DNA of 24,000 bases. Origin: Limimonas halophila (GTDB lineage Bacteria > Pseudomonadota > Alphaproteobacteria > Kiloniellales > Rhodovibrionaceae). A model generated the notes under the pieces. It ran no database searches. It was given only the letters and a program-made list of their open reading frames with translations, and was not told the DNA's origin. Positions 1-24,000 of the stretch are shown piece by piece. Position numbers and translations under genes: made by a program. The stretch is taken from contig NZ_FNCE01000001.1 of assembly GCF_900100655.1 (NCBI RefSeq), positions 545,252 to 569,251 of the forward strand, read 5' to 3'. Within the stretch, counting starts at the first letter, position 1. Each line of letters begins with the position of its first letter.

Positions 1-417
1 CCCGTGCCGGTGTGCTACGTTAATGTCGTGCGCGATCCCTGGGACAACGTGGCGACCAAGGCGCTGCGCACGGGCCGGCCGGTGACGGAAGCCGCGCGCA
101 TCTTCACCGCCAACGCGCGCACGATCGCCGAGTTGACCGAGCGCGCGCCCGAGCGGGTGAGCACGCTCCACCTGGACCAGCTGATCGCCGAGCCGGCGCC
201 GGTGCTGCGGCAATTGATCGCTTTCCTGGGCGCGAGCGCGCCCGAGCGGGCCTACCTGGATGCCTGCGCGGCCCTGCTGTTCACGAAGCCGAGCCGCACG
301 CGCGAGCGCGTGACCTGGTCCGCCGAAGCGGTGGCGGAATTGGACGCGGCCTGCCGCGACATTCCCTTCCTGCAGCGCTACGCGCGCGGCGCCGAAGCGG
401 ACTCCGCGCCAGCATAG
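1..417 (+). CDS. sulfotransferase-family protein, C-terminal part (5' end lies outside the window)
   Basis: The ORF runs in from the window edge and stops at TAG 415-417. The sequence VRDPWDNVAT...LHLDQLIAEP...LIAFLG resembles the C-terminal half of bacterial Sulfotransfer_3-type proteins. Third-position GC is typical of the coding regions here. Confidence 0.45.
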   Translation, partial: PVPVCYVNVVRDPWDNVATKALRTGRPVTEAARIFTANARTIAELTERAPERVSTLHLDQLIAEPAPVLRQLIAFLGASAPERAYLDACAALLFTKPSRTRERVTWSAEAVAELDAACRDIPFLQRYARGAEADSAPA

Positions 418-1571: not shown

Positions 1572-1627
1572 GCGTCCGCCTCCAAGCGGGCTGCCCGGCC
1601 GGGATGCCCGGTCGGGCGCGGGCGAGA

Positions 1628-6329: not shown

Positions 6330-6342
6330 GCCACCTCCGGGC

Positions 6343-7386
6343 TCAGGCCGGCTGCGCGGCGGTCTCGTCCGCGCCCGCTTCCTCGCTCGTGCCCGCGTCC
6401 TCCGGCTCGATCTCCACCTCGAAGCCGAGGTCCTGGATCATCGCCGCCGTCTCCGAGGCGAGCTGGCCGTCGGTGGTGAGGTAGCCCTCCACGAACACCG
6501 AGTTGGCCGGGTAGAGCGCCAGCGGCTGCAGGCTGCGCAGGTTGACCTCGCGCCCGCCGGCCACGCGCACGTCCGCCGCCGGCAGCAGGAAGCGCGCCAG
6601 CGCCAGCACCTTGAGGCAGTAGCGCGGGGTCAGGCCGCTGTCGATGTTTTCGAAGGGCGTGCCCTCGATCGGGATCAGGAAGTTGAGCGGCACGGAGTGC
6701 GGCTCGATCTCGCGCAGGTGGAAGAGCATGTCGACGATGTCTTCGTTGCTCTCCCCTTGGCCGACGATGCCGCCCGAGCACAGCTCCAGCCCCGCGTCCT
6801 GGGCGTTCGCCAGGGTCGCCACGCGGTCGGCGTAGGTGTGCGTGGTGCAGATGTTGGGGTAGTGCCGCTCGGAGGTGTTGAGGTTGTGGTTGAGGCGGTC
6901 CAGCCCCGCCGCCTTCAGGCGCTCGGCCTGATCGCTCTTGAGCAGCCCGATGGACAGGCAGGTGTCGATGCCGACCTCGTCCTTGATGCGCGAGATGACG
7001 CGGCAGAGGTTGTCGATCTCGCGGTTGGTCGGCCCGCGCCCCGAGAGCGCCATGCAGTAGCGCCGCGCGTCCAGATCCTTGGCGTGCCGGGCCTCCTTGA
7101 GGAACTGCTCGTCGTTCCACATGCGGTATTTCTCGATCGCCGCCGTGGAGATCTTCGACTGCGCGCAGTAGTGGCAGTCCTCGGGGCACAGCCCGCTCTT
7201 GACGTTGCTCAGCCGGTGCACGTGCACCTTCGACCCGCGCCGCTGGCGGCGCACGCGGTAGGCGGCGTGCAACAGGGCCAGCAGGTCGTCGTCCGACGAT
7301 TCCAGGACGGACAGCGCCTGCTCGCGCGTCAGCGCGTCGCCGGCGATCGCCGTCTCGGCGAGGGTGTCGAAGCTGGGCTCGGGCAT
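6343..7386 (-). CDS. bioB: biotin synthase (radical SAM)
   Basis: The radical-SAM motif CPEDCHYC and BioB-like YCMALSGRGP and LNHNLNTS regions are present. The ORF track starts at GTG 7440. I prefer ATG 7384-7386 (MPEPSFDTL) because GAGAGGA lies about 8 nt upstream. Confidence 0.9.
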   Translation of the reverse strand: MPEPSFDTLAETAIAGDALTREQALSVLESSDDDLLALLHAAYRVRRQRRGSKVHVHRLSNVKSGLCPEDCHYCAQSKISTAAIEKYRMWNDEQFLKEARHAKDLDARRYCMALSGRGPTNREIDNLCRVISRIKDEVGIDTCLSIGLLKSDQAERLKAAGLDRLNHNLNTSERHYPNICTTHTYADRVATLANAQDAGLELCSGGIVGQGESNEDIVDMLFHLREIEPHSVPLNFLIPIEGTPFENIDSGLTPRYCLKVLALARFLLPAADVRVAGGREVNLRSLQPLALYPANSVFVEGYLTTDGQLASETAAMIQDLGFEVEIEPEDAGTSEEAGADETAAQPA

Positions 7387-7585
7387 CGGGTCGGTCCTCT
7401 CGGGCGCGCCCCGGTTCGGCGGGGCGGTCTCAATTCTCACGCACGTGGCTCGCGGGGATGGGCCGGGCCGGGAACCCGGCGCGAACCGGACGCTAATTCA
7501 AGCCCGCGCCCGCGTCCATGCTGGTTTTCCCACGCGTCACCGCAGTTTTCGCGCGGGTTTTTTCGCACGCGCGCCGCATCTCCGT

Positions 7586-7630: not shown

Positions 7631-8170
7631 ATGCGCGAGCCCGGGGGGCCGATGCCCGACGACACTTTCCGCTGGATGCTCACATGCGAGACGCCGCGCC
7701 TGCGCCGCTTCGCCACGGCGCTGACGGGTGACGCGGAGCGCGCGGACGATCTCGTGCAGGACACGCTGGAACGGGCGCTGCGCAAGCGCCGGCTGTGGGC
7801 CGGGACGGGCAGCATGCGGAGTTGGCTGTTCAAGCTGCTCTACCGCGTGCACCTCAACCAGCGGAGCCGCGCGCGCACCGAGGCATCGGCCCTCACGGCC
7901 GTGGAATACCGGGACACCGGCAGCATGCCGGCCAACCAGGACAGCCACGTCGAGGTGCTCAATGTCTCCGTGGCCCTGCGCGCGCTGCCGGCGGAGCAGC
8001 GCGACGCCGTTCTGCTGGTGGGCCTGGAGGGCATGGCCTACGACGAAGCCGCGGATGTGCTCGGCGTCCGCGTGGGAACCCTGAAGTCGCGCCTCTACAG
8101 GGGGCGCGAGGCCCTGTGGGCGATCCGCCGGGGCGACGTCGCGGCGACGCAGACGAAGGTGCGCTCATGA
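7631..8170 (+). CDS. ECF (group 4) sigma-70 family RNA polymerase sigma factor
   Basis: 179 aa. Region 2 reads ADDLVQDTLERAL...SWLFKLLYRVHLNQ. Region 4 reads LPAEQRDAVLLVGLEGMAYDEAADVLGVRVGTLKSRLYRGREAL. The start could also be the ATG at 7652. Confidence 0.85.
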   Translation: MREPGGPMPDDTFRWMLTCETPRLRRFATALTGDAERADDLVQDTLERALRKRRLWAGTGSMRSWLFKLLYRVHLNQRSRARTEASALTAVEYRDTGSMPANQDSHVEVLNVSVALRALPAEQRDAVLLVGLEGMAYDEAADVLGVRVGTLKSRLYRGREALWAIRRGDVAATQTKVRS

Positions 8171-11178: not shown

Positions 11179-11946
11179 TCACGATCGGCGCTTGCGCCGC
11201 GGTGCCCGGCCGCCCAGCCAGTTGGTCAGGCCGGTGATCGCCAGGGCCACCGCGGCCAGGCCGACGAGGTCCACGACGAGCACCCCGGCGGTGCCGAAGA
11301 GCCGGCCGCTGTGCAGGTCCAGCAGCAGGCGCGACCACGGAATGTGTGGGCGCCCCGCCAACTCAGCGAGGCGGGCGCGCACCTCGGCTGGCGGCTCGCC
11401 GGGCTGCGACCAGGTGTCGGGGCAGGACGTCTCGGACCAGGAGACGACGCCCGGCCCGGCGCGGTGGCAGCCGTTGGCGGTGCGCAGCACCACGCCGCCG
11501 TCCTTAGCCCGCGCCAGCGCCGTCGGTTCGCCGGGCAGCGCCGCCGCGCCCAGACTTTCCACCAGCCGGCCGTCCGGGGTCAGCAGCACCAGGGACGTCG
11601 AACCGGCGGCGACCAGCACGCGCGCGCTTGCCACCGCGCCGACGGGTGGCCCGGCGATGTCGGTCACGCGCTCGCCGTCCAGAACCAGCGTGCCGCCGGC
11701 CCAGCCGAGCCAGCGCCCGTCCACGCGGTAGGCGCGTGTCCGCGCCGCTGCGTCGTCGTGATACAGGCGCAGCAGCCAACCCCGGTGCAGCTCGGCGTCA
11801 TCCAGGCCCAGGGTTGGGCTGTGGTTGATCAAAACGCCCGTCACGGCCAGCAGCACCAGCACCGCGCCGGCCGCCAGCCCCACCCAGCGGTGCAGCTTCA
11901 GGTTCCAGGCGCGCAGGCGCTTGCGCCGCCGGTCAGCTCTCGCCAT
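11179..11946 (-). CDS. PepSY-associated transmembrane protein (PiuB/FoxB-like family)
   Basis: 255 aa. The N-terminus RKRLRAWNLKLHRWVGLAAGAVLVLLAVTGVLI is the PepSY_TM signature. A second TM segment lies at the C-terminus, after LLLDLHSGRLFG. The gene overlaps the upstream FMN-binding gene by 14 nt. Confidence 0.7.
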   Translation of the reverse strand: MARADRRRKRLRAWNLKLHRWVGLAAGAVLVLLAVTGVLINHSPTLGLDDAELHRGWLLRLYHDDAAARTRAYRVDGRWLGWAGGTLVLDGERVTDIAGPPVGAVASARVLVAAGSTSLVLLTPDGRLVESLGAAALPGEPTALARAKDGGVVLRTANGCHRAGPGVVSWSETSCPDTWSQPGEPPAEVRARLAELAGRPHIPWSRLLLDLHSGRLFGTAGVLVVDLVGLAAVALAITGLTNWLGGRAPRRKRRS

Positions 11947-12484
11947 CGCCGCCGTCCGCGCCGGTCACGGCGCCGTGTAGGACGAGCGCCATCTCGGCGA
12001 TGTTGGTGAGCGCGCGCACGCTCAGCGTGGCGCCGGAGATGCCGTCGATGTAGCGGTCCAGCCCGTCGCGCGCGGCGTTGAGCGTGGCGCCGTCGAACTG
12101 CTGGGTGAAGAAGTCCTCGCGCACCTCCCAGCCGCGGCTTTCCCGGTAAATCAGGACCTTGATGCGCTGCACCGCGCCGTCCTCGACGACGACGCCGGTG
12201 GTGATGGGTTCGTGCTTGCCGATGCGTTCGAGGATCCAGGCCGTGCGGTCGCCCCGCTGCCAGTAGCGCATGCGCAGGCTGTTGGGCTCGTCGCCCAGCA
12301 CGCGCTTGAGCCCGGCTTTCACCTCGCCGGTGATCCAGAGCACCTCGTCGCTCGGCGGCTCGCCGTCGAAGGCGCCGGCGATGAAGGCGTCCGGCTCCTG
12401 GTACACGTCCGCCGCCCACGCGGGCAGGGCGAGTGCGAGCAGCGCAAGCCCGATCAGAACCGGGCCGGTCGGGACGGAACGCAT
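11933..12484 (-). CDS. secreted FMN-binding domain protein (ApbE substrate-type)
   Basis: ATG 12482-12484 has GGAGG 6 nt upstream. The signal peptide is MRSVPTGPVLIGLALLALALPAWA/AD. The FMN_bind motif IDGISGATLSVRA contains the [ST]GA[TS] flavinylation threonine. Confidence 0.75.
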   Translation of the reverse strand: MRSVPTGPVLIGLALLALALPAWAADVYQEPDAFIAGAFDGEPPSDEVLWITGEVKAGLKRVLGDEPNSLRMRYWQRGDRTAWILERIGKHEPITTGVVVEDGAVQRIKVLIYRESRGWEVREDFFTQQFDGATLNAARDGLDRYIDGISGATLSVRALTNIAEMALVLHGAVTGADGGDGES

Positions 12485-12544
12485 GACGGCCCTCCTTCGG
12501 GGGTTCGGGGCCGGACGGCGCGGCCGCCCGGCCCGCATGCGTGG

Positions 12545-13885
12545 TCAGAACTGCAAGCCGAGGGCCAGGTTGAAGCTGCCCTCGTCGTCGCGGCTGTCTT
12601 CGTAGGTCTGGTGGGCGTAGTTGGCCTTCAGGACCATGTTGGGATCGAGCCAGTAGTTGGCGCCGACGTTGAACTCGGTGAAACGGCTGTCGATGGCGTC
12701 GCGGCCCGCCTGATCGTCGATCATGGAGACGCGGCCGAAGACGCCCAGCTCGCCGGGGCCGACGTTCTGGAAGGTGTAGCTGGGCTGCAGGTACCAGCCC
12801 CACTGCTCGTCGCGCCCGAAGCCTTCCAGCGACACCGTGGACGCCGTGCCGTCCTCGTCGAAGTCGATCTGCTGCTGCACGTCGTCGTGGAAGTCCCAGC
12901 GCGCGTACATGGCGCGGAAGCCCCACGGCCCGCGTTCGATGTCGGCGTGGGTCTCGAACAGCGTCGCCTCGACGTCCTCGCGGTCCTGGGTCACGTCCTC
13001 CTGGTACTGTCCGGTCGCGGACAGCGTCACGCCCGGCATCCCGGTCCACTGCAGGCGCAGCGTCCCGGCGCCGGATTCGGCCGTGGCGTTGGAAGCGGAC
13101 TGCGTGGACGCGGCGGCGTTGAAGGCGTTGCCGGCTTCGCCGCCCTCGGCGCCTTCCGCGCCGGTCAGCGAGGCGTCGAGCCCGGTGTGGATCATGGCGT
13201 CGTAGCTGAAGCCGCCGCCGAGCTGACCGCGCACGCTGGCCGAGGCCTCCCACCAGGTGGTGGGCAGGATGCGGCGCTCCACGATGGGCCGCTGCGTGCC
13301 GTAGAAGGTGTTGGGCTCGTGGGTTTCGTTGATAACGCCCACGGGGATCAGCTCGACACCGCCGCGCACCTCGTGGTTCTGGGCGATGTCGTAGGCGGCC
13401 CAGAGCTGCTCCAGCTCAACCTCGCCCTCGCTGTCCTCGCCGCCGAAGACGAGCGCGTTCTCCACTTCCAGTTCGGAGAAGAAGCGCAGGTCCTCGTTGA
13501 ACTGGTGGCCGACCTCGAGGACAAAGCGCTTGGCGGTGGCTTCGGCGTCGCCGTTGCCGACCTCGCCGCCTTCGCCGCCTTCCAGGGCGTTGTCCCCGAT
13601 GTAGTGGACCTCGCCGTAGCCGCCGATCTGGGTGTTCTCGAACCAGCCGGACGGCCCCTGGCGGGCCTCCTTGGCGACGTTCTGAACCATGTCGCCGGTG
13701 GCTTCGACCTTGGCCTCGGTCTCCTTCTGCTCGCCTTCCAGCTGGTCGATCCGCTCCTGCTGCTGCTGGATGATCTCCCACATCCGCTCGCGGGAGGGCA
13801 GGTCGTCGGTCTGCGCCCGGGCCTGGCCCGCCGTCATGGCGGCGGCGACCAGGGCCGAGGTCATCAGCAAGCTGCTGCGTCGCAT
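12545..13885 (-). CDS. outer-membrane beta-barrel porin with N-terminal coiled coil (OprO/P- or DcaP-like)
   Basis: These are the last 446 codons of the 830-aa ORF-track entry. The signal peptide is MRRSSLLMTSALVAAAMTAGQARA/QT. A coiled-coil stretch (IIQQQQERIDQLEGEQKETEAKVE) is followed by alternating beta-strand patterns. The protein has the OMP-type terminus LALGLQF. Confidence 0.75.
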   Translation of the reverse strand: MRRSSLLMTSALVAAAMTAGQARAQTDDLPSRERMWEIIQQQQERIDQLEGEQKETEAKVEATGDMVQNVAKEARQGPSGWFENTQIGGYGEVHYIGDNALEGGEGGEVGNGDAEATAKRFVLEVGHQFNEDLRFFSELEVENALVFGGEDSEGEVELEQLWAAYDIAQNHEVRGGVELIPVGVINETHEPNTFYGTQRPIVERRILPTTWWEASASVRGQLGGGFSYDAMIHTGLDASLTGAEGAEGGEAGNAFNAAASTQSASNATAESGAGTLRLQWTGMPGVTLSATGQYQEDVTQDREDVEATLFETHADIERGPWGFRAMYARWDFHDDVQQQIDFDEDGTASTVSLEGFGRDEQWGWYLQPSYTFQNVGPGELGVFGRVSMIDDQAGRDAIDSRFTEFNVGANYWLDPNMVLKANYAHQTYEDSRDDEGSFNLALGLQF

Positions 13886-13945
13886 GGGATACCCCCTTGG
13901 TTGTAGCGCCCGCCGACCGTGATGGCCGGCGCGCGCCTCCGTAAT

Positions 13946-13964
13946 GCGAATGCGACGCATTTGC
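13946..13964. promoter_or_regulatory. Fur-box-like palindrome 1, proximal to the porin operon
   Basis: The sequence is GCGAATGCGACGCATTTGC, with arms matching 8/9 around a central A. It matches the classical GATAATGATAATCATTATC consensus at 11/19 positions and is 16/19 identical to box 2. It lies 61 nt from the porin ATG. On the minus strand it fills the 17-nt spacer between TTGCAA and TACGGA. Confidence 0.4.
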
Positions 13965-14074
13965 AACACGCCTTCTGTCCGGTTACAACCCGGCTGTGGC
14001 TTGCGGCGGACGCGCCGCGCACCGGGGCATGTCCCGCTTTGACGCGGGGCGCCGGAGCGTGCCGCGACCATCTT

Positions 14075-14093
14075 GAGAATGCAAAGCATTTGC
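14075..14093. promoter_or_regulatory. Fur-box-like palindrome 2, proximal to pepM
   Basis: The sequence is GAGAATGCAAAGCATTTGC, with a core of TGCAAA-GCA-TTTGCA. It matches the classical Fur consensus at 13/19 positions. It lies 60 nt from the pepM ATG. It overlaps a possible TTGAGA-N17-TAGCGT promoter. Confidence 0.4.
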
Positions 14094-14152
14094 AATAGCG
14101 TCCCGAACGCCGGGTGGCCGGATGGCCGGCCGGCGCGGGGAAGGGGGAGCCC

Positions 14153-15097
14153 ATGACGCTGCACATCGACCAGGAAAGCGCGCCCGCGACGAGTCGCCTG
14201 CGCGCGTTGCTGCACGCCGGCGCGCCCATTCCGGTGATCGACGCCTACGACGCGCTCTCGGCGCGCATCGTCGAATCGGCGGGCTACCGGGCGATCTGGG
14301 CCTCGGGCCTGGGTATCTCGGCGTCCTTTGGGCTGCGCGACAACAACGAGGCGTCGTGGACGCAGATCCTCGACTCGCTGGAGCTGATGGCGGAGGCCAC
14401 GAGCGTTCCCATCCTGGTCGACGGCGACAGCGGCTTCGGCAACTTCAACAACGTCCGCCGCTTCGTGAAGAAGATCGGCCAGCGCGGCCTGGCGGGCGTG
14501 TGTATCGAGGACAAGGCTTTCCCGAAGGCCAACTCCTTCGCCGAGCGCACGCACGAGCTGTGCCCGGCTGGCGAGTTCTGCGGCAAGATCCGCGCGGCCA
14601 AGGACAGCCAGCCTGACGACGACTTCGTCGTGGTCGCGCGCACCGAGGCGCTGATCGCCGGGCACGGGCTGGACGCGGCGCTGGCACGGGCGGAGGCGTA
14701 CCGCCACGCCGGGGCGGACGCCATTCTCGTCCATTCCAAGGCCACGACCGCGGAGGAAGTGGCCGCCTTCGCCGCCCGCTGGGGCGGCCGCGCGCCGCTC
14801 GTCGTCGTGCCCACGACCTACGCGGATACGCCGGCTGACACCTTCCAGCGCATGGGCGTGTCGCTGGTCATCTGGGCCAACTTCACGCTGCGCGCAGCCA
14901 TCCAGGGGATCGAGAACGCCTGCGCCGCCCAGCAGGCGAACGGCGGCGCGCCCGAGCCCGGCGACGCGCGCTACGCGCCGCTGAAACGCGTCTTCGAGCT
15001 GACCGACGAGCAGGAGCTGCGCGCGGCCGAGCAGCACTACATGCCCGCCGCCGAGGACGGTCCAGCGCCCGCGCGCCTGCGTGCAGCCGGGTCCTGA
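14153..15097 (+). CDS. pepM: phosphoenolpyruvate mutase
   Basis: The protein has an isocitrate lyase/PEP mutase fold and carries the PepM-diagnostic EDK-x5-NS motif (IEDKAFPKANSF). ATG 14153 is preceded by AAGGGGGAG. The ORF track starts at GTG 14114. Confidence 0.88.
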   Translation: MTLHIDQESAPATSRLRALLHAGAPIPVIDAYDALSARIVESAGYRAIWASGLGISASFGLRDNNEASWTQILDSLELMAEATSVPILVDGDSGFGNFNNVRRFVKKIGQRGLAGVCIEDKAFPKANSFAERTHELCPAGEFCGKIRAAKDSQPDDDFVVVARTEALIAGHGLDAALARAEAYRHAGADAILVHSKATTAEEVAAFAARWGGRAPLVVVPTTYADTPADTFQRMGVSLVIWANFTLRAAIQGIENACAAQQANGGAPEPGDARYAPLKRVFELTDEQELRAAEQHYMPAAEDGPAPARLRAAGS

Positions 15098-15108
15098 GGG
15101 GGCAGGCG

Positions 15109-16290
15109 ATGCACGAACCCGGTGCGCTGCTCGACACGCTCGCCGCCCACGGCGTGGATTTCGCCGCCGGAGTGCCGTGCTCGCTCCAGGGCGGGGTGTT
15201 CGCCGCGCTGGAGCAGGGGCGCGCGGATATCCCCTATGTGGCTGCCAGCGGCGAAGGGGAGGCGGTCGGCATTGCCGCCGGCGCCTGGCTTGCCGGGCGG
15301 CGGCCGGCGGTGCTCCTGCAGAACTCGGGCCTGGGCAACACCGTGAACCCCCTGGCGGCGCTCACGCAGCCCTTCGGGATTCCAGTGCTGCTGTTGGTGT
15401 CCTGGCGCGGGCAGCCGGGCACGGGCGACGCGCCGCAGCACGCCGTCATGGGCGCGGCGACCCACGCGGTGCTGAGCGATCTGGGCATCGCGCACGAAGA
15501 GCTGGCGGAAACCCCGGACGGCGTGGCGGCGCAGCTCGCCCGCCTGACGGCGTGGATGGACACCGAACGGCGCAGCGCCGCCCTGATCGTGCCGCCCGGC
15601 CGGATCGCCGAGCACGACGCGGGCACGGCATCACGGGTGAGCGCGGTCGCGGACGCGGACCCCGCACGCCGGGAGCCGGCCCCGCACCGGGATTTTCGGG
15701 CCGGCGGAGCGCCGCCCGCTCGTGCCGAGACCCTCAGGGCCGTCGCCGAAACCTTGCCGCCGGAGGCCGCCGTCGTCGCCACCACGGGCAAGATCGCACG
15801 CGAATGCTACGCGCTCGCCGACCGGCCGCGGAATTTCTACGTCACCGGCGGCATGGGCAGCGCCGCCGCCATTGGGCTGGGCATCGCCCGCGCGCAGCCG
15901 GCGCGGCCGGTCGTGGTGCTGGACGGCGACGGCGCGGCGCTCATGCGCCTGGGAACACTGGCGACCGTGGGGGCACAGGCCCCGGCGCGGCTGACCCACG
16001 TGCTGCTGGACAACGGCGCGCACGATTCCACGGGCGGGCAGCGCACCGCCAACCCCGGCGTCGACTTCGCCGCCGTCGCGCGCGCCTGCGGCTACGCCGC
16101 CACGGCCGCCTGCGACACCCGCGACGGCCTTGCCGAGGCGCTGCGCGCACCGGACGGCCCGGCGCTGGTCCATGCGCACGTGGCAACCGGGGCGCTGCCG
16201 AAGCTGGGCCGCCCACAGGAAACGCTGCCGGAGCTGGCCGCGCGCATGCGCGCGCACCTGACCGCCACGGAGGACTCCCCCGATGCCTGA
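15109..16290 (+). CDS. ppd: phosphonopyruvate decarboxylase (ThDP-dependent)
   Basis: 393 aa. The N-terminal PYR domain reads GVDFAAGVPCSLQ...LQNSGLGN. The C-terminal PP domain has the GDGAALM...NGAHDSTGGQ ThDP motif. The gene lies 11 nt downstream of pepM. Confidence 0.88.
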   Translation: MHEPGALLDTLAAHGVDFAAGVPCSLQGGVFAALEQGRADIPYVAASGEGEAVGIAAGAWLAGRRPAVLLQNSGLGNTVNPLAALTQPFGIPVLLLVSWRGQPGTGDAPQHAVMGAATHAVLSDLGIAHEELAETPDGVAAQLARLTAWMDTERRSAALIVPPGRIAEHDAGTASRVSAVADADPARREPAPHRDFRAGGAPPARAETLRAVAETLPPEAAVVATTGKIARECYALADRPRNFYVTGGMGSAAAIGLGIARAQPARPVVVLDGDGAALMRLGTLATVGAQAPARLTHVLLDNGAHDSTGGQRTANPGVDFAAVARACGYAATAACDTRDGLAEALRAPDGPALVHAHVATGALPKLGRPQETLPELAARMRAHLTATEDSPDA

Positions 16291-17740
16291 CGCCGCATCC
16301 GCCCGCGAACCCGCGCCCGACGCCTCGGCCGCGGCCGAACCGGGCGGCTGGCCCGCCGTGAACGTGCCGCGCTCGCACGCGCCCGGCGTGGTCTGGCCGG
16401 CCGTGCCGGACTGGCGCCAGGCGGTGGTCCTGGGGCTGCTGCACCAGTTCAACCAGGCGCAGTGGTGGTCGCCGGACGACCTGTGGCACTGGCAGCGCGC
16501 CCAGGCCGCGCGGCTGATCCTGCACGCCCAGAAGCACGTGCCCTTCTACCGCAAGCGCCTGAAGCGGGTGCCCATCTTGCGCGACGGCACCGTGCCGGAA
16601 GGGGCGTGGCGCCGCATCCCGTGGCTGCGGCGCGAGGACATGCAGAATCAGTACGAGGCCCTGTGCAGCCAGGCGATCCCCGAAGGCCACGGGCGCGTGT
16701 CCGCCGTGCATTCCTCGGGCTCGACCGGCCGGCCCATCAAGGCGCTGCGCACGCAGCTCTCGGTGCTGTTCTGGGAAGCCTTCACGCACCGCGACCACGA
16801 CTGGCACGGCCGCGACCGCAACCAGACGGTCGCCGTTATGCGCCACGCGGGCGAGGGGGACGACCCCTATCCCGAGGGCACGCGCGCCCGCAACTGGGGC
16901 AAGGAGCCCACGGCCGTCTACGACACGGGGCCGTGCGTGGCGCTCAACCTCAACACGCCGTTGGATCAGCAGGTGGAGTGGCTGCAGCGCCAGCAGCCCG
17001 CCTATCTGCTCACCTTCCCCTCGAACGTCGAGCGCCTGGCCCGGCACTGCCTGGAGACCGGCGCGCGCATCCCGACGCTGCGGCAGGTGCAGCTCATCGC
17101 CGAGGTGGTGCGCCCCGAGCTGCGCGAGCTGGTGCGGGCGGCCTGGGGCGCCGAGGTGGTGGACACCTACAGCTCGCGCGAGGCCGGGTATCTGGCGCTC
17201 CAGTGCCCCGAGCACGAGCACCTGCACGTGCAGAGCGAGGGCGTCATCGTCGAGGTGCTGAAGGACGACGGCACGCCCTGCACCCCCGGCGAGATCGGGC
17301 GCGTCGTGGTGACGCCGCTGCACAACTACGCCATGCCGCTGATCCGCTACGACATCGGCGACTACGCGGAAGTGGGCGAGCAATGCCCGTGCGGCCGGGG
17401 GCTCCCGGTGCTGCGGCGCGTTCTCGGGCGCGCGCAGACCACCTTCGTGCTGCCCGACGGCAGCCGGCGGTGGACGCTGCTGTCCAGCGGCGAGATCCGC
17501 GAGCTGCTGGCGATCGGCCCCATCCGGGGCTATCAGTTCGTGCAGACAACCACGGACCATGTCGAGGCGCGGCTGGTCGCCGACCGCGCGCTCACGACCG
17601 ACGAGGAAGAGCAGGTGCGCGGCTGGCTGCGCCACAAGCTGCAGCATCCCTTCGCCGTCACCATCGCCTATCGCGACGAGCTGCCGCTGACGGCCGGCGG
17701 CAAGTTCTTCGACTTCATCTCGGAGGTTGCCGCGCCATGA
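16283..17740 (+). CDS. PaaK / coenzyme-F390-synthetase / CapK-like adenylate-forming ligase (ANL superfamily)
   Basis: 485 aa. It carries the AMP-binding motif SSGSTGRPIK, the YSSREAG and PLIRYDIGD regions, and a C-terminal GGKF. GGAGGA lies 8 nt upstream of the ATG. The gene overlaps the ppd stop by 8 nt. Confidence 0.75.
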   Translation: MPDAASAREPAPDASAAAEPGGWPAVNVPRSHAPGVVWPAVPDWRQAVVLGLLHQFNQAQWWSPDDLWHWQRAQAARLILHAQKHVPFYRKRLKRVPILRDGTVPEGAWRRIPWLRREDMQNQYEALCSQAIPEGHGRVSAVHSSGSTGRPIKALRTQLSVLFWEAFTHRDHDWHGRDRNQTVAVMRHAGEGDDPYPEGTRARNWGKEPTAVYDTGPCVALNLNTPLDQQVEWLQRQQPAYLLTFPSNVERLARHCLETGARIPTLRQVQLIAEVVRPELRELVRAAWGAEVVDTYSSREAGYLALQCPEHEHLHVQSEGVIVEVLKDDGTPCTPGEIGRVVVTPLHNYAMPLIRYDIGDYAEVGEQCPCGRGLPVLRRVLGRAQTTFVLPDGSRRWTLLSSGEIRELLAIGPIRGYQFVQTTTDHVEARLVADRALTTDEEEQVRGWLRHKLQHPFAVTIAYRDELPLTAGGKFFDFISEVAAP

Positions 17741-18729
17741 CCACACGGCGGACGCTTCTCGGCACGCTCGGCGGCCTCGCCGGCGCGGCCGTGTTGCCCT
17801 GGCCGCTGGCGGCGGGTGAGCGCGCACGCCGCGAACCGCTGACGTTCATGGGGGTGTCGGGCCGCGTGACCCTGGCGGACCCCGGTGACGGCCGCGTCGA
17901 GGCCGCGCTGGCGCAGGTGCGCCGCGAGCTGCGGCGCCTGGAAGCGGCCGTGAGCCTCTACGATCCAAACAGCGAACTCTCGCGCCTCAACCGCGACGGC
18001 CGGCTGGCCGGGGCCTCGCCGGCGCTGCGCGCGGTGCTGGACCGGGCGTTGGCGGTCGCGCGGGCCACGGACGGCGCCTTCGATCCCACGGTGCAGCCGC
18101 TGTGGGAACTGCACGCGCGTTTCTTCCGCGATGCGAACGCCCCCGCGCCCCCGCCGCAGCTGCTGCGCGAGCGCGCGGCCGGGCTGGTCGATCATCGGCG
18201 CGTGCGCGTGGACAGCGATGGCGTGGCGTTCGACCGGCCCGGCATGGCGGTGACGCTCAACGGCCTGGCGCAGGGCCGCGCCACGGACCTCGTCACCGAA
18301 ACGCTGCGCCGTCATGGCCTGCACCGGCACCTTGTGGATCTGGGCGAATTCAGCGCCCGCGCCGGAAACGACGGCGAGCCGTGGCGTGTGGGCGTGGCCG
18401 CGCCGGCGGGCGGGCGGCTGACGCTGGTGCGCACTGTCCCGCTGACGTCGGGTGCGCTCGCCACCTCGGCAGGCTACGGCACACCCTTCGACGCCGAAGG
18501 CCGGCACCACCACCTCTTCGATCCCGCGACCGGCGGCAGCACCACGCGCCACGCCAGCGTCAGCGTCACCGCGCCCGACGCTGCCACCGCGGACGCGCTG
18601 TCGACCGCCTTTTCGGCCATGCCCACGGGCCGCATCGCCGCCGTGGTCGCGGACCGGCCGGGGCTGGGCGCGCTCGTCGTGGATCACGCCGGGGCGGTAG
18701 AAACCTTCGGCCGCTTTGCGGCGGCGTGA
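17737..18729 (+). CDS. apbE: FAD:protein FMN transferase (ApbE family), Tat-exported
   Basis: There is an ATGA overlap with the ligase stop. The twin-arginine signal is MTTRRTLLGTLGGLAGAAV. ApbE motifs are FDPTVQPLWELH, LNGLAQGRATD and TSAGYGTPFDAEGRHHHLFDPATG. The first 425 codons of the 755-aa ORF-track entry lie out of frame over the ligase gene and are ignored. Confidence 0.85.
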   Translation: MTTRRTLLGTLGGLAGAAVLPWPLAAGERARREPLTFMGVSGRVTLADPGDGRVEAALAQVRRELRRLEAAVSLYDPNSELSRLNRDGRLAGASPALRAVLDRALAVARATDGAFDPTVQPLWELHARFFRDANAPAPPPQLLRERAAGLVDHRRVRVDSDGVAFDRPGMAVTLNGLAQGRATDLVTETLRRHGLHRHLVDLGEFSARAGNDGEPWRVGVAAPAGGRLTLVRTVPLTSGALATSAGYGTPFDAEGRHHHLFDPATGGSTTRHASVSVTAPDAATADALSTAFSAMPTGRIAAVVADRPGLGALVVDHAGAVETFGRFAAA

Positions 18730-18739
18730 CGGGCTCAGC

Positions 18740-19840
18740 ATGGCCGACGACGACGCGCCCATTCTGCTGACGCCGGGGCCGCTTACGACCTCCGCCGGCG
18801 TCAAGGCGGCGATGGACCGCGACCACGGCTCGCGCGATCCGGGATTCCTGGCGCTGACGCAGCGCGTGCGCGAACGCCTGCTGCGTGTCGTCGGCGGCGA
18901 TCCGGCAACGCACGCAGCCGTGCCGCTCGCGGGCAGCGGCACCACGGCCGTGGAGGCCATGGTGCTATCCCTCGTGCCGCCCGACGGGCGGCTGCTGATG
19001 CTGGTCAACGGCGCCTACGGCGAGCGCATGGCGCAGATCGCCCGCGCGGCCGGTCGCGACGTGACGACGCTGACCTGGCCGGAAGACAGCCCGGTCGATC
19101 CCGGGGCGGTGGACGCGGCGCTGGCCGCCGATCCGGCCATCGGGCACGTGGCCGTGGTCCACGTCGAAACCACCACGGGGCTGGAAAACCCCCTGCATGC
19201 GATCGCGCGCACGGTCCAGGCGCGGGGGCGGGCGCTGCTCGTGGATGCGGTCGCGAGCGTCGCGGCCACACCGTTGGATTTGCAGGAAACGCCCGTCCAC
19301 GCCCTGGCGGGCACGGCGAACAAGGGGCTGCAGGGCGTGCCGGGGCTGGCCTTCTGTGTCGCCCGGCGCGATGCGCTGGACGCGGCGGACGGTCGCGCGC
19401 CCAGCCTCACGCTCGATCTGGCCGCGCAGTGGCGGCGGTTCCAGCGCGATGGGCAATGGCGCTTCACGCCGCCGACGCACGCGGTCGCGGCCCTGGATCG
19501 CGCCCTGGACGAGCTGGACGGCGAGGGCGGCGTGCCGGCCCGCATCGCCCGCTACCGCGACAATTGCGCCACGCTGCGCGCCGGCCTGCGCGCGCGCGGG
19601 TTCGTGCCGCTGCTGCCCGACGCGCACCAGGCGCCCACGATCGTTACGGTGCACCGGCCGCCCGAGCTGGCGTTCGATGCGCTCTACGACGGTCTCGCCG
19701 CGCGCGGATTCCTCATCTATCCGCGCAAGCTGACCGCGGCCGAAACTTTCCGCGTCGGCTGCATCGGCGCCATCGGCCGCCGCGAGATCGAGGGATTCCT
19801 CATTGCGCTCGACGACGTGACGGCGAGCCTGCGCCCATAG
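18740..19840 (+). CDS. phnW: 2-aminoethylphosphonate:pyruvate aminotransferase (class V)
   Basis: 366 aa counted from ATG 18740. The N-terminus is ILLTPGPLTTS, and TANKGLQGVPGLAF contains the PLP lysine. Its position directly after pepM and ppd argues for a biosynthetic role. Confidence 0.85.
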   Translation: MADDDAPILLTPGPLTTSAGVKAAMDRDHGSRDPGFLALTQRVRERLLRVVGGDPATHAAVPLAGSGTTAVEAMVLSLVPPDGRLLMLVNGAYGERMAQIARAAGRDVTTLTWPEDSPVDPGAVDAALAADPAIGHVAVVHVETTTGLENPLHAIARTVQARGRALLVDAVASVAATPLDLQETPVHALAGTANKGLQGVPGLAFCVARRDALDAADGRAPSLTLDLAAQWRRFQRDGQWRFTPPTHAVAALDRALDELDGEGGVPARIARYRDNCATLRAGLRARGFVPLLPDAHQAPTIVTVHRPPELAFDALYDGLAARGFLIYPRKLTAAETFRVGCIGAIGRREIEGFLIALDDVTASLRP

Positions 19841-20186
19841 CTTGCAGTTGGACGCCGCCGCGACCCCATGCACTCGGATGGGCGAGCCGCGCACACCGCT
19901 CGGATCGACGTACCTGATCGGGATTACAAGTTGACGAATGCCGCGCCGACAACCGCGCTGGCATCACTGACGCAGGCCATAAAAATGGCTGGGGGACCAG
20001 GAAGCGCTCCCTCCACCGATAAATTCTTTGTTTTTCAATTTCTTAGCGAGTTGGTCCATCCTTGTGTGGACAAGCGCTGTGGACTCCCGCTGTGTCATTG
20101 CCACGTCCCCTCACTGGGTGGCTTATTCGTGATGCGAAGCCCATGGCTAGGACTACCCAGAGTACACGGTAATTGATGGCGCAAAG

Positions 20187-20704
20187 TTAGAATAGCTCGT
20201 TCGGGGTCTCGATAACGTTGCGGGCGACGTGCGGGGTGACGCCCTGTTCGCGCAGCTCCGCCACAAAGTCCTTGGTGTCGTAGCCTTTGTCGGCGCCGAG
20301 CGTTCGCCTTGCGTGTCGGGCATGTGCAGCGCGGCCATTCTCTTCGTAGGCGGGGTGCGCACGTCCACGACGCGACCGTGCCTGTTCTTGGTGAACACAC
20401 GATCCATGTAAGCGAGTCCCGATGTTTGGCCCGCGGCTTTGTGGAACAGATGTAAACCCGGATCGGCGCTCGAGCGGCTGGTGGCGTTAGAACGGCGTTC
20501 GCCGCGGAAAAACTCCGCCCATGTTGCACGGGTCGGTCGCCCCGCAATCCCAGGTCCGTAACCGCAGTTGTCGTTCCCACTCTCACGATCGACTGGATAG
20601 AAGTTCCCAACCAACACCTAAGCTTGGATCAGCGCGCCGCCGACCGAGCGATGGTCCAAACTCAACAGCGCCTTCGCGCGCTCATTCTCCAGTACCACCG
20701 TAAG
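20187..20704 (-). pseudogene. decayed internal fragment of an IS5/IS1182-family DDE transposase
   Basis: The minus-strand translation reads TVVLENERAKALLSLDHRSVGGALIQA*VLVG...FFRGERRSNATSRSSADPGLHLFHKAAGQTSGLAYMDRVFTKNRHGRVVDV. After a frameshift it continues TLGADKGYDTKDFVAELREQGVTPHVARN and ends abruptly. There is an in-frame TAG where Trp is expected. The N-terminal part and the C-terminal roughly third of the protein are missing. Confidence 0.7.
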
Positions 20705-20734
20705 AAGTTATTCGTTATTTTGACTCAGAATAAG

Positions 20735-21185
20735 TCACATATCGCGGCTGGGGATGTTGTGCTCCTGGGCGCCCTCGGCACCCACGGCGTCCGCGTAGAT
20801 GGCCGTGGTGCTGAGCTGCGCGTGGCCGAGCCACTTCTGCACCATGTTGAGCGGAATACCGGCCTGCATCGCCGCCACGCCGAAGCCGTGGCGCAGGCCC
20901 TTGGGCGTGGCCTGCGGGCCGTCCAGGCGGGCCTCGTGCATGACGGCCGCGACGTGCCGCCAAGCGGTCGGCCGGCTCCACGACCATAAGCACACGCCGC
21001 GCGCGACTGCGCCGCTGCAGTTGGCGGACGTCGTGCACCAACTCCAGCGCGTCGAGCACACTGGTTGGCACGGGCACGGCCCGATACACGGCAGACCGGC
21101 GCTCTTCAGCCGTTAGGTGCTTTCGCGGGCCTTGGGCGTCGTAGAGTTCCAGGTGGGCGGGCGCGTGGTCGGTGCGCGCGGTCAT
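20735..21185 (-). pseudogene. short tyrosine recombinase/integrase, frameshifted and probably internally deleted
   Basis: The C-terminal catalytic region reads PKGLRHGFGVAAMQAGIPLNMVQKWLGHAQLSTTAIYADAVG (the R-H...H...Y box). The N-terminal frame starts at ATG 21183-21185, with GGAG upstream, and reads MTARTDHAPAHLELYDAQGPRKHLTAEERR. The two parts are in different frames, since the 451-nt span is not a multiple of 3. The region carrying the first catalytic Arg appears to be absent. Confidence 0.6.
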
Positions 21186-22361
21186 GTGATCTCCGTGTAC
21201 GCATGCCGCGCCTTTACGGCCGCCGCATGCTGCAGTGCGCGCAAGGCCGCCTCCGGGTTGTGGGTCGGCATTGAGGGAGGGTGCCGATTGGCCCCGTAAG
21301 TTAGTGATGCACATGACTTTCCAGGGGTTAGACGCTGACGCCGATCGACACGCAGGCGCTTCTTTGTGCTTCACGCGGAGGCTCTCGCGGTTACATACGA
21401 CAACAAGGCGCCCGGCAATTCCGCCCGGCGGAATATTGGCCGATACCCAGCACACACCTCCCCCGCGTTTTTTCTTCCGCAGCGCAAACGGGCGGCAGGC
21501 ATCTGCGCGGTCGGCAGCAGGCACAGCAAGCATCAGCAGAGCGCGAACAGCAACTGCGAACGAGCGCCAGGGCGGGGGAGGACCCTTCGCTAGACCCGGC
21601 CCATGTGATCCTGTTCGCGAGGTGGTGGCGAGCGCCGGGCACTGCTTGCTCTCGGCACGTTCAGGCTGTCGGCCGCGGCTCGCCGGCGGGCATGGTGCGC
21701 GTTGCTTTCAGGTGGCTCGCTGCAGCGCTGTCACCGGCACCGGTGGAAAACGCGGCTGGCAAGGCCAGCGTGGTCGTGGCGGAGCCGATGCTCGCCAAGG
21801 TGTAAGCGCGATCGACCCAGTCCGGCCGCGCCGCGCGGGTGTCAGCTGACCGCACTGCGCCGTCCTGCGGCGCGTCCAAGATCGCGGGCAGCGGGGCGGC
21901 TTTTGTATTCGGGGACAGCAAGGTGCGCCTGTCGCGCAGCTTCGAGAAAGTGGGGAAGGGCAACAAGGAGAACGGGGTTGGCGATCCGTGTCGCCCCCTT
22001 CGCCACCACGATGAAGAACCTTTGTGCACGCGCATTTTCCTATGCGCTTCCCACCGCTGGGAGATGAAAGTGTATTCGCTTCACTCACCGGCCAAGGGCT
22101 TGTGCCAGAACGTTCCTGGCGTTTCGCTATGACATCTTGGGGAGCTCCCTTCGGAGACGCTCGTGGGACACGTAGGGCTTTGAGAGGGTGGGTATGCAGA
22201 GTTCGAACGGTGTTCATCAGGCTGCATGGGGTTTTCCAGATGCAGTGTGACGACGTGACCCAAGATCATGGCTATGTTTCTGCTTTCCCTGAATAATTCG
22301 ACTTTTTGCTTGATGAATGAATCAACGCGTGTGGTGATTCAGCGGCTCTCGTGGATTAGGG

Positions 22362-22389
22362 TTGACGGAAATTGAAAACATAATATAGA
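22362..22389 (+). promoter_or_regulatory. near-consensus sigma70-like promoter candidate in an AT-rich island
   Basis: The element is TTGACG (22362-22367), a 16-nt spacer, then TATAGA (22384-22389). No annotated gene lies downstream, only a 32-codon ORF without an RBS. Confidence 0.3.
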
Positions 22390-22760
22390 TCAATTATTTA
22401 TGAGCTATGATTTTGATAGGCTGCATTTTGCAGATTCATCAACGAATCGAGCGACCTCTTTATTAATTCAGGTAGACGCGTTGTTTCTGCATCACTGATG
22501 CACTGTGTTGACAAGATAAAGCTGCGCTCGAAGCCGTCTGAGCCGCCTAGCGAACGAGGCGATCAGGGCCGGGTCTAGCGCGTGCCTGCCACCATCCAAT
22601 CGCTGCATCTCGCGCTGATGCGAAACAGCCACGTAAGCGCTTACTGGGGCGCCTCTGGCTTTCAGGGGCGGGCCCCACGTAGCCCCCAACCCCCAAAGGC
22701 CCCTCAGCGGCGAAAAAATCGGCCCTGGCGGGCATCTCTGCGCGCGATCAAACCCCGGCT

Positions 22761-23213
22761 CTAGTAGCCGACGCAGCGAACGCTGCCATAGCCGGTCGGG
22801 AAGCACTCGATGTCGACGGTCGGCGTGGGCGGCGTCTTCCGGGGCCGGGCCGGCGTCATCTCCGGCACCTCGGCCTGATGAATGCCGTCCCTGGCCGAGA
22901 CCTCCAGGTAGAGCGATCCGTTCCGGCCGAAGCTGTAGCTGACGCTCGTATTGCTGCTCGGCGCGTCCCAGATCCCCTGACAGCCGGCGTACGAGCCGTC
23001 CATGCTCTCGAACCGGAGCCGGCACAGGGAATCGTCGACCCAGGGCCTAGCCGCGAAGGTCTCCGCCAGGGCCGGGTGCGAGAACGCCGGGTCGGTCTTC
23101 GACGTCTCCGGCCAGGGCGTGTCGGCGAGGGCCGGGCCGAAGGGCAGGGTGAAGGCCAAGCCGAGGGCGAGGGCATGCCGAGAGCGTGATCGGTGCCGGG
23201 GTAAGCTGTCCAT
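22761..23213 (-). CDS. hypothetical secreted protein (150 aa, 4 Cys)
   Basis: AGGAGA lies 7 nt upstream of the ATG. The signal-peptide-like N-terminus is RHALALGLAFTLPFGPALA/DT. Third-position GC is high within an otherwise lower-GC island. I recognise no family. Confidence 0.4.
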   Translation of the reverse strand: MDSLPRHRSRSRHALALGLAFTLPFGPALADTPWPETSKTDPAFSHPALAETFAARPWVDDSLCRLRFESMDGSYAGCQGIWDAPSSNTSVSYSFGRNGSLYLEVSARDGIHQAEVPEMTPARPRKTPPTPTVDIECFPTGYGSVRCVGY

Positions 23214-23268
23214 CCATCATTCTCCTGTCGGTGAGGGCTTCCAACCTTGCGGCGCGCAGCGCCGCGCA

Positions 23269-23304
23269 CAAGAAAGATAGATCCGTCAGGATCTATCTTT
23301 CTTG
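23269..23304. repeat. perfect 16-bp inverted repeat with a 4-nt loop
   Basis: The sequence is CAAGAAAGATAGATCC-gtca-GGATCTATCTTTCTTG, verified base by base. A GC hairpin GCGGCGC-gca-GCGCCGC at 23249-23265 immediately precedes it. Confidence 0.85.
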
Positions 23305-23355
23305 CTAGTCTTCTTAACTCTCTCTTACTTTCTTTCTTCTATAAGAATCTCTAAT

Positions 23356-23404
23356 AGTATATTTATTATATAATATAAGAGTATCTTTATTATATAGTAT
23401 CTAG
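23356..23404. repeat. imperfect tandem duplication of about 24 bp inside a roughly 100-bp AT-rich tract
   Basis: Unit 1 is AGTATATTTATTATATAATATAAG. Unit 2 is AGTATCTTTATTATATAGTATCTAG. The units share AGTAT-N-TTTATTATATA-N-TAT. Confidence 0.7.
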
Positions 23405-23457
23405 AATGTGCGCACGCGTGTGTGTGCGAGCGCGCCCACGCGCGCGAACGCGCGGGG

Positions 23458-24000
23458 TTAGTGTAACCCCGATCGCGTCGGCCGGGGAGGAAAATCTCGG
23501 CCGGCATTCCGGCCGCCACCGACGTGACCATCGACGTTGCCACCGTCGGTATCGTCTCCGCTGTGCTCGCCGAGGAGCTGGAAGCTCGCCATCGACGCCC
23601 ACGCTTGGATCAGCGTGCCGTCGACCGAGAAATGCTCCCGGCTCAACAACGGCTTGCCCCGCTCGTGCTCCAGGATCGCGGTGAGAAACCGTTGCTCCAC
23701 CTCCGTGGCGACCAGCCGCTCACGGTTCTTGGCGTAGACGCTGGAATGCCAGACCGCATCCTCGATCCCCAGGCCCACGAACCAGCGGAGCAGAAGATCA
23801 AAGTCGAGGCGCTCCATCATCTGGCGCTCGGACACAAAGTCGCTGGCCGAAGGCCAGCTAACAGATGCCGTGGTGCAGCTGGAGCACCAGCGCACGCATC
23901 AGCCACTCCGGGGGAATGCTCGGCCGTCTGCGATCGCTATAGATCGCTTCGAACGTCGGCGACAGTTCCTTGAGCGCGTCATCCACCACGCCCCGGATCA
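23458..24000 (-). pseudogene. N-terminal part of a second, decayed IS5/IS1182-family transposase (continues beyond the window)
   Basis: The minus-strand translation reads IRGVVDDALKELSPTFEAIYSDRRRPSIPPEWLMRALVLQLHHGIC*. After a frameshift it continues SERQMMERLDFDLLLRWFVGLGIEDAVWHSSVYAKNRERL...EHFSVDGTLIQAWASM...GGGRNAGRDF. This is the InsH-N/DUF772-type N-terminal domain. Homology stops near 23490. Confidence 0.7.

Follow-up and report, generated by a model that had tools for sequence, protein, structure and literature searches.

A 24,000-nucleotide stretch of the genome of Limimonas halophila (contig NZ_FNCE01000001.1, positions 545,252 to 569,251; hereafter the window) was analysed, with the focus on five plus-strand genes that encode the pathway to 2-aminoethylphosphonate (AEP) together with a PaaK/CapK-like ligase, and on the three-gene operon that diverges from them. 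The region occupied by the two operons, 11179–19840, is best read, with a probability of about 0.5, as a mosaic, iron-responsive locus and not as a dedicated phosphonate gene cluster. The two divergent operons would be governed from a common promoter region with Fur boxes. At low iron, Fur would leave both operators and all eight genes would be expressed together, so that AEP synthesis would be iron-repressed. The left operon is of a widespread, ApbE-dependent electron-transfer type that has been linked to Fe(III) reduction and assimilation; its porin, secreted FMN_bind protein and PepSY_TM protein would reduce extracytosolic substrates, of which Fe(III) species are the most plausible. The right operon would be a mosaic of three parts, namely the AEP pathway, a displaced ApbE and a PaaK/CapK-type ligase. 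ApbE, supplied from this operon, would attach flavin mononucleotide (FMN) to the threonine of the DGISGATLS motif in the FMN_bind protein, and the AEP enzymes and the ligase would be made from the same transcript as ApbE.

A preliminary description, made from the letters of this DNA, had taken the genes at 14153–19840 to be a self-contained phosphonate unit in which the ligase tailors the product. Its gene calls, its AEP pathway and its ligase family all stand. The new tailoring logic that it proposed fares less well, both in a family-wide survey of the ligase and in view of an ApbE that would serve the divergent FMN_bind protein. The ApbE identity of gene 4, the divergent operon at 11179–13885 and the Fur-type operators had been missed. 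The features of the locus, in window coordinates, are as follows.

11179–11946, minus strand: PepSY_TM membrane protein, 255 aa, predicted to be the flavoprotein's partner in electron transfer across the membrane (PF03929, PF16357)
11933–12484, minus strand: secreted FMN_bind flavoprotein, 183 aa with the start as in the NCBI record, predicted ApbE substrate (PF04205)
12545–13885, minus strand: outer-membrane porin, 446 aa, signal peptide, first gene of the divergent operon (PF13609 Porin_4)
13943–13967, 58–82 bp upstream of the porin ATG: predicted Fur-alpha-type operator cluster 1 (Fur position weight matrix (PWM), palindrome search)
14072–14096, 57–81 bp upstream of the pepM ATG: predicted Fur-alpha-type operator cluster 2 (Fur PWM)
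14153–15097, plus strand: phosphoenolpyruvate (PEP) mutase PepM, short form without nucleotidyltransferase domain, 314 aa (PF13714, TIGR02320, EDKAFPKANS)
15109–16290, plus strand: phosphonopyruvate decarboxylase Ppd, 393 aa (TIGR03297)
16283–17740, plus strand: PaaK/CapK-like adenylate-forming ligase, 485 aa (PF00501, profile search, AlphaFold2 (AF2) model)
17737–18729, plus strand: ApbE FAD:protein FMN transferase, 330 aa, with a Tat/lipoprotein-like N-terminus (PF02424)
18740–19840, plus strand: AEP:pyruvate aminotransferase PhnW/AepZ, 366 aa (TIGR03301, NF010006)

Predicted Fur-type operators in the divergent promoter region

The intergenic region between the two operons spans 267 bp (13886–14152), the porin start codon being placed at 13885. 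It contains a 33-nt direct repeat (13934–13966 and 14063–14095), the copies of which are 76% identical, lie 129 bp apart and each bear palindromes; the repeat looks like one operator duplicated, one for each divergent promoter. The 21-bp palindrome TGCGAATGCGACGCATTTGCA at 13945–13965 holds the two overlapping 19-mers of cluster 1, with 0.00–0.02 chance matches expected in the palindrome search, and the palindrome AATGCAAAGCATTTGCAAT at 14078–14096, in the second copy of the repeat, belongs to cluster 2. When the window was scanned with a PWM built on 27 Fur sites of Caulobacter crescentus (PMC2724300), the four best matches, of 15–19 bits, all fell within 13943–14096: 16.4 and 16.2 bits in cluster 1, and 18.9 (the best of the window) and 15.2 bits in cluster 2. 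This top placement holds despite the much more AT-rich stretch at 19.9–24 kb.

The same placement recurs in related loci (handles L001 onwards). The top match lies in the equivalent intergenic region between the porin and the ligase operon in L001, L002, L003 and L166, and L001 and L172 have further Fur boxes directly upstream of pepM and phnW. In L167, L169 and L170, which carry the porin-flavoprotein module in other surroundings, the best or second-best match lies upstream of the porin gene itself or of the one before it. The best match of L169 is upstream of bfd, which validates the matrix, bfd being a classic Fur target. Two loci with stand-alone ligases, L005 and L008, have rank-1 boxes of 16–17 bits just upstream of the ligase; among 133 loci of the broad ligase family, boxes of at least 14 bits upstream of the ligase were found only in L002, L003, L005 and L008, and are thus not a family-wide trait.

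The predicted sites have the 9-1-9, 19-bp palindromic form of a Fur-alpha box, stand in a promoter region and recur in orthologous loci. In Rhodospirillales this motif class has been assigned to the iron-sensing Fur and not to Mur (PMC1698941). We infer from these sites that both operons are iron-repressed via Fur. The Pho box, the Irr iron control element and the RirA box, as quoted in PMC1698941, were also considered and were rejected, as they do not fit the palindromes. A scan for sigma-70 promoters found none and terminator predictions stayed at the level of shuffled sequence, both scans being uninformative in DNA of 72% GC; Rfam and ARAGORN found no riboswitch, other RNA element or tRNA in the window. 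Elsewhere, a strong Fur-like box, AATGATAACGACTTGCATT (18.1 bits), occurs in L003 at 6527–6545 in the tail-to-tail gap between an aminotransferase gene and the PepSY_TM gene, a place in which a promoter would not be expected; a small gene that was not called may lie there.

ApbE and the porin-flavoprotein module

The product of gene 4 matches PF02424 (ApbE) with 197 bits over profile positions 1–265 of 266. A candidate substrate is encoded ~5 kb away on the opposite strand: the FMN_bind protein (PF04205, 1.5e-8), whose N-terminus resembles a signal peptide and whose sequence includes the flavinylation motif DGISGATLS, of the [S/T]GA[S/T] type. It is 100% identical to a protein known from Limimonas halophila, which belongs to the Rhodovibrionaceae within the Rhodospirillales. 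Its gene is overlapped by 14 nt by that of the PepSY_TM protein (PF03929, 9.5e-12, 45.8 bits; PF16357 also matched), homologues of which occupy the same position in L001, L002, L003, L166, L169 and L170. The porin reaches PF13609 Porin_4 at 28.3 bits (cutoff 27), and its positional homologues match PF07396 Porin_O_P. With the PepSY_TM gene clustered with FMN_bind and apbE in the divergent operon, the locus falls under the definition of a PepSY-like flavinylation system (Meheust et al. 2021). PepSY-like proteins that occur with ApbE and a flavinylation substrate serve extracytosolic electron transfer; earlier work connects them with the reduction and assimilation of iron and with repression by Fur (PMC8238504).

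In other proteobacteria the porin, FMN_bind, PepSY_TM and ApbE genes form a single operon (L170/L171), or the porin, FMN_bind and ApbE genes do so (L167/L168), and these general-module loci (L167–L171) contain no ligase and no pepM. The window ApbE is ~50% identical to the module-encoded ApbE of L167/L168 and 52% identical to the ApbE of L172, whose locus is of the AEP type. Because of this near-equal likeness to module ApbE proteins, we take the window ApbE to be a displaced part of the neighbouring module and not a phosphonate enzyme; judged by its sequence relationships, it is clearly not a phosphonate-tailoring enzyme. Iron-related genes also border the module in other loci: a gene for an Nfu/NifU-type Fe-S scaffold beside PepSY_TM in L001 (2298–3209) and close by in L166 (1163–2068), and bacterioferritin with bfd beside the module in L169 (9381–10130).

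The AEP operon

In the window, where GC is ~72%, a third-position GC of 0.83–0.94 singles out the five plus-strand open reading frames (ORFs) at 14153–19840. The junctions reported in the preliminary description were confirmed: an 11-nt gap between pepM and ppd, an 8-nt overlap of ppd and the ligase gene, an ATGA overlap of the ligase gene and apbE, and a 10-nt gap between apbE and phnW. GGAGG-type ribosome-binding sites lie 5′ of the ligase gene and of gene 4 (apbE), and the five genes are presumably co-transcribed.

The three AEP enzymes are what they had been called. PepM matches PF13714 at 7e-63, and its translation holds EDKAFPKANS, the EDK-x5-NS active-site motif, with ppd 11 nt downstream, which is the functional signature of a PEP mutase. 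It scores 312.6 bits against TIGR02320, 7 bits below the equivalog cutoff of 319.55; the next-best family, phosphonopyruvate hydrolase, gives 207.7 bits, its cutoff of 374 lying far above. Ppd passes TIGR03297 with 377.5 bits (cutoff 312.5) over profile positions 1–360 of 360, and the aminotransferase passes both TIGR03301 PhnW-AepZ (418.2 bits, cutoff 360.8) and NF010006 (422.7 bits, cutoff 296). PepM would convert PEP to phosphonopyruvate, Ppd would decarboxylate this to phosphonoacetaldehyde, and PhnW would form AEP. It had also been noted that the usual AEP-consuming partners are absent, and indeed no cytidylyltransferase, LicD, CDP-alcohol transferase, glycosyltransferase, ATP-grasp or non-ribosomal peptide synthetase (NRPS) gene turned up in the window ORFs that were scanned.

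Family and structure of the ligase

The ligase contains an SSGSTGRPIK motif and a C-terminal GGK lysine, with G473-K474 invariant in its family. The general AMP-binding profile PF00501 is barely reached (30 bits). Against the PaaK equivalogs TIGR02155 and NF041878 the protein scores 44.3 and 70.1 bits, missing the cutoffs of 646 and 700, and against NF045666, the DVU_1553-family AMP-dependent CoA ligases, it scores 139.8 bits (cutoff 300, missed), the best stretch covering only residues 219–383. PaaK proper, F390 synthetase, FlxY, BagE/FevW and DVU_1553 were accordingly all rejected as identities, being far below the NCBIfam cutoffs. A profile of the ligase family finds PaaK, AjiA1 and NatL2 in the PDB at ~1e-26. 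The AF2 model has a pLDDT of 85.5 with the first 24 residues disordered, and Foldseek matches it to BT_0428 and PaaK1 at 2e-26 with a TM-score of ~0.6; the structure search added nothing beyond membership in the PaaK family. By fold (in the model), P-loop-like motif and C-terminal lysine, the protein belongs to the PaaK-type small ANL superfamily.

PF27533 (CapK_C) is among the precomputed matches of ligase homologues at 51–60% identity (P0007–P0012, P0008) and is not listed for the closest relatives, P0001, P0003 and P0005. The earlier assignment to a PaaK/CapK type is therefore borne out by PDB profile matches, Foldseek and CapK_C in homologues; the PaaK-like matches that it had foreseen for 16283–17740 were recovered by profile and fold, with scores below the equivalog cutoffs for PaaK and F390 synthetase. 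The type 1 capsule of S. aureus, from whose locus CapK takes its name, carries amide-linked taurine, the sulfonate analogue of AEP.

Distribution of the ligase and its neighbours

The ligase family is large (>4,220 matches, typically at 50–55% identity, in several phyla). We sampled 80 genome and 80 metagenome loci of ligase relatives and searched them with the window proteins. In none of the 158 loci with ligases at 38–60% identity, 87 of which have at least 8 kb of flank, was pepM, phnW, apbE, FMN_bind or PepSY_TM found; two of them gave partial Ppd matches of ~35% coverage from another ThDP enzyme, and a full-length ppd match was found in none. All-versus-all clustering of the flanking ORFs of 82 loci revealed no neighbour of the ligase in more than nine loci; an ABC ATPase, a 17-kDa antigen and PolA were among these unrelated neighbours. 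Among the metagenome relatives one is close (L102, 95% identity, partial, with the gene order lig-apbE-phnW) and the other 79 are at 38–58%.

Linkage of the ligase to AEP genes is confined to one clade of Rhodovibrionaceae, with ligases at least 63% identical. The refuting condition set in the preliminary description, that ligase homologues are not enriched next to pepM, thus gives a split answer, negative in the 158 distant loci and positive in this clade. The clade comprises four sublineages. In the Limimonas type (the window; L166, 90%; L102, 95%) the order is pepM-ppd-lig-apbE-phnW, and in a type known from metagenome-assembled genomes (MAGs) of Rhodovibrionaceae (L001/L004, L172) phnW stands first, followed by pepM-ppd-lig-apbE. 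In L003 the ligase gene diverges from the porin-FMN_bind-PepSY_TM cassette, on the far side of which lies an AEP cluster of a different type, with a PepM-nucleotidyltransferase fusion; in L002 the ligase and the cassette are present with no AEP gene within 10 kb. The cassette hence accompanies the ligase in all four sublineages and AEP genes do so in three of them. In a neighbour-joining tree L002 falls inside the AEP-linked clade, next to the L001 group (76% identity). The ancestor of the clade therefore probably had the AEP linkage, which L002 would have lost or relocated. Stand-alone ligases occur in the sister lineages L005/P0007, L173/P0008 and L008/P0014. As for PepM, its nearest relatives outside the ligase clade are at most 58% identical and are mostly PepM-nucleotidyltransferase fusions; of the two contexts inspected, L174 has a nucleotidyltransferase and CDP-alcohol transferases, and L175 an unrelated set of genes.

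In the ligase alignment 89 columns are invariant across 42 sequences. A position was called clade-specific when it is invariant in the clade and differs from one residue common to at least 80% of 35 outgroup sequences. Only seven such substitutions were found, all conservative (A/L, S/T, E/S, A/S, V/L, A/V and V/I), and none is a convincing active-site change, so nothing points to the AEP-linked enzymes having taken on another substrate. As judged from these comparisons, the ligase comes from a large and highly conserved family whose members normally stand alone and which in sister lineages has its own Fur box. Most likely it activates a carboxylate with ATP in the way that its stand-alone relatives do, and it is probably not dedicated to phosphonate tailoring; it seems to have been part of the iron response before the AEP genes arrived.

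Several further observations concern these sequences. The ligase family has four invariant cysteines (window residues 308, 333, 368 and 370), including those in QCPEHEH and CPCGRGLPV, and in the A8 region of ANL enzymes an invariant Gln (GRxQ) takes the place of the usual hinge Asp. Several MAGs carry tandem or multiple copies (three matches in L047 and L068; two in L043, L046, L049, L058, L061 and L072), and some have three separate loci. In P0004, of 829 aa, the N-terminal half is the ligase and the rest of the protein has no Pfam match. In L003, positions 1–6507 encode on one strand a 538-aa PepM, Ppd, an APH/choline-kinase-like protein and an enolase, and on the divergent strand a HAD hydrolase and a class-V aminotransferase, which could equally be a catabolic phnX-phnW pair.

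Evaluation of the alternative explanations

Several points speak against the mosaic, iron-responsive locus proposed here. The single Fur-PWM scores reach only about the 95th percentile of the maxima from shuffled sequence and fall short of the 23-bit median of the training sites, so the argument for Fur rests on repeated co-location. The nesting of L002 inside the AEP-linked clade means that its AEP genes may have been moved elsewhere secondarily. The ppd-ligase overlap is kept in two lineages (window/L166 and L001/L172) whose ligases are only 64–68% identical, and this is the look that would be expected of a functional pepM-ppd-ligase unit. The operon holds no other AEP-consuming enzyme, which makes the ligase the sole candidate for a tailoring step, and the mosaic model offers no positive reason for AEP synthesis at low iron.

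It is with these points in mind that the ligase could be regarded as a tailoring enzyme after all, one that adenylates a carboxylate and passes it on to the amine of AEP, or that instead activates an acid bearing a phosphonate, to give an AEP amide or N-acyl-AEP, with ApbE as a passenger. We consider this unlikely, though it deserves serious thought. The translational coupling to ppd in the window, L166, L001 and L172 is what it would call for, the AEP genes lie no more than 10 kb from the ligase in three of the four sublineages, on both sides of the clade root, and no other consumer of AEP was seen among the window ORFs scanned. The chemistry has precedent too: PaaK-like enzymes that form amides or esters directly are known (AjiA1, NatL2), and the PaaK/CapK-like VpsH of V. 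cholerae is genetically required for the glycine amide on GulNAcA in a polysaccharide (PMC13463779). This has to be set against the complete absence of pepM from the 158 more distant loci, the stand-alone state of the sister lineages L005, L008 and L173, and L002, where no AEP gene lies within 10 kb of the retained ligase and cassette. In L003, moreover, the whole cassette separates the ligase from an AEP cluster that is itself of a different type, and the seven conservative substitutions beside 89 invariant columns give no sign of an altered substrate pocket.

A role for the phosphonate itself in iron uptake was also contemplated. AEP, or an amide or other conjugate of it made by the ligase, might be released as a small anionic Fe(III) ligand, re-enter through a phosphate-type porin and be reduced by the ApbE-flavinylated FMN_bind protein and PepSY_TM, freeing Fe(II). 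Phosphonates and aminophosphonates bind Fe(III) well, the eight genes have a common region with Fur boxes, and the AEP genes, ligase and cassette have stayed linked despite rearrangement; the porin homologues fall in the phosphate/pyrophosphate-selective Porin_O_P family, although the assignment of the window porin itself is weak (Porin_4, 28 bits). PepSY-like systems have been linked to the reduction of chelated iron (PMC8238504), yet the general module occurs in many lineages without AEP genes. The hallmarks of a siderophore or metallophore cluster, that is a synthetase of the NRPS or NRPS-independent siderophore (NIS) type, an exporter and a TonB-dependent receptor, were found neither among the window ORFs nor among the called genes of L001, L003 and L166, and a text search found no paper tying phosphonate biosynthesis to iron limitation or Fur. 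Being without precedent as well, this explanation seems to us improbable.

A neutral juxtaposition, finally, would have the AEP genes feed surface phosphonoglycans or phosphonolipids through enzymes encoded elsewhere, their present place being due to rearrangement near a region rich in mobile elements and the Fur boxes serving the porin operon only. The operon does adjoin decayed mobile-element DNA, as judged by the lower GC and the integrase and transposase fragments at 19900–24000, the position of phnW varies between lineages, and the out-of-clade relatives nearest to PepM sit in ordinary nucleotidyltransferase/CDP-alcohol-transferase clusters. Nevertheless, a separate cluster of Fur boxes stands 57–81 bp upstream of the window pepM, with boxes before pepM and phnW in L001 and L172 as well, and ApbE, which the module needs, is transcribed from within the AEP operon. 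Chance is unlikely because of these separate boxes and the embedded apbE, and the linkage persists between lineages whose ligases have diverged to 64–68% identity, so we hold this explanation to be very improbable.

Other features of the window

From 19900 to 24000 GC falls to 57–67%, and this stretch contains the C-terminal fragment of a tyrosine integrase (20735–21112, minus strand) and a fragment of an IS5-type DUF772 transposase (23458–23898, minus strand). The decayed mobile-element DNA may relate to the differing phnW position in the window lineage. At the other end of the window, a complete biotin operon occupies 1628–7440 (minus strand), with bioB (6343–7440), bioF (5145–6329), a BioH-type alpha/beta-hydrolase (4456–5148), a BioC-like methyltransferase (3699–4478), bioD (2959–3750) and bioA (1628–2950). 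An EcfG/PhyR-type extracytoplasmic function (ECF) sigma factor gene lies at 7631–8170 (plus strand), and its stop overlaps the start of a 306-aa ORF; this ORF, with which the region ends at 9087, has no Pfam match and may encode the anti-sigma factor of that sigma factor.

Novelty and significance

Every component of the locus belongs to a known family. New are the interruption of the AEP core by a CapK/PaaK-like ligase and ApbE, the divergent pairing of an AEP operon with a porin-flavoprotein-PepSY module, and the predicted Fur control of phosphonate biosynthesis, which appears undescribed; no report of any of the three came to light, and nothing relevant emerged from literature searches that paired pepM with phenylacetate-CoA ligase, or phosphonate biosynthesis with Fur or with iron limitation. 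The architecture is restricted to a small group of halophilic Rhodovibrionaceae. Regulation of the widespread AEP pathway is usually discussed in terms of phosphorus, and to our knowledge its roles beyond lipid and glycan decoration are largely unknown. If the predicted control is true, it would be the first link of phosphonate synthesis to iron limitation, and it could be tested in a cultured halophile, Limimonas halophila. Were the phosphonate to assist iron uptake, the product would be the first phosphonate metallophore and AEP would gain its first physiological role tied to iron. The locus also offers a way into a very large family of CapK/PaaK-like ligases that is conserved and uncharacterised and some members of which appear to be in the Fur regulon. 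For genome mining, it illustrates that a place inside a phosphonate operon does not by itself make an enzyme a tailoring one: ApbE is a clear case of this, and the ligase may be another.

Comparison with known systems

With the AEPT-type neighbourhoods of Li & Horsman (bioRxiv 10.1101/2021.04.07.438883) the locus shares all three core enzymes of the AEP pathway. Unlike them, it has no PntC-type cytidylyltransferase domain or gene, LicD, CDP-alcohol transferase or ATP-grasp gene, its core is broken by the PaaK/CapK-like ligase and ApbE, and Fur-type operators lie upstream. The text of that inventory does not mention an AMP-forming ligase, ApbE or a porin in AEP neighbourhoods, and the earlier statement that the ligase context is unlike described phosphonate pathways agrees with this, as none of the neighbourhood types is said there to include such a ligase.

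PaaK, AjiA1 and NatL2 are the best matches of the ligase among solved structures, by profile and by fold, and share its P-loop-like motif and C-terminal lysine. The ligase differs from them in an identity of only ~20%, in an extended N-terminus and in the lack of paa genes in the window. The CapK/VpsH-type ligases of polysaccharide loci (PMC13463779) likewise share the small ANL (PaaK-family) fold, and CapK_C is found in homologues of the ligase, a likeness drawn at the level of the family. In contrast to those loci, no glycosyltransferase, Wzx/Wzy or sugar-nucleotide gene is near the ligase, and its family normally stands alone with no conserved neighbour.

The left half of the locus resembles the PepSY-like, ApbE-flavinylated systems (PMC8238504) in that a PepSY_TM gene is clustered with an FMN_bind substrate and ApbE. 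It differs from them in that the flavinylated partner is an FMN_bind protein and not DUF2271, in that a porin takes the place of a TonB receptor or DUF4198, and in that, in the ligase clade, ApbE has moved into the divergent operon, beside the AEP genes and the ligase.

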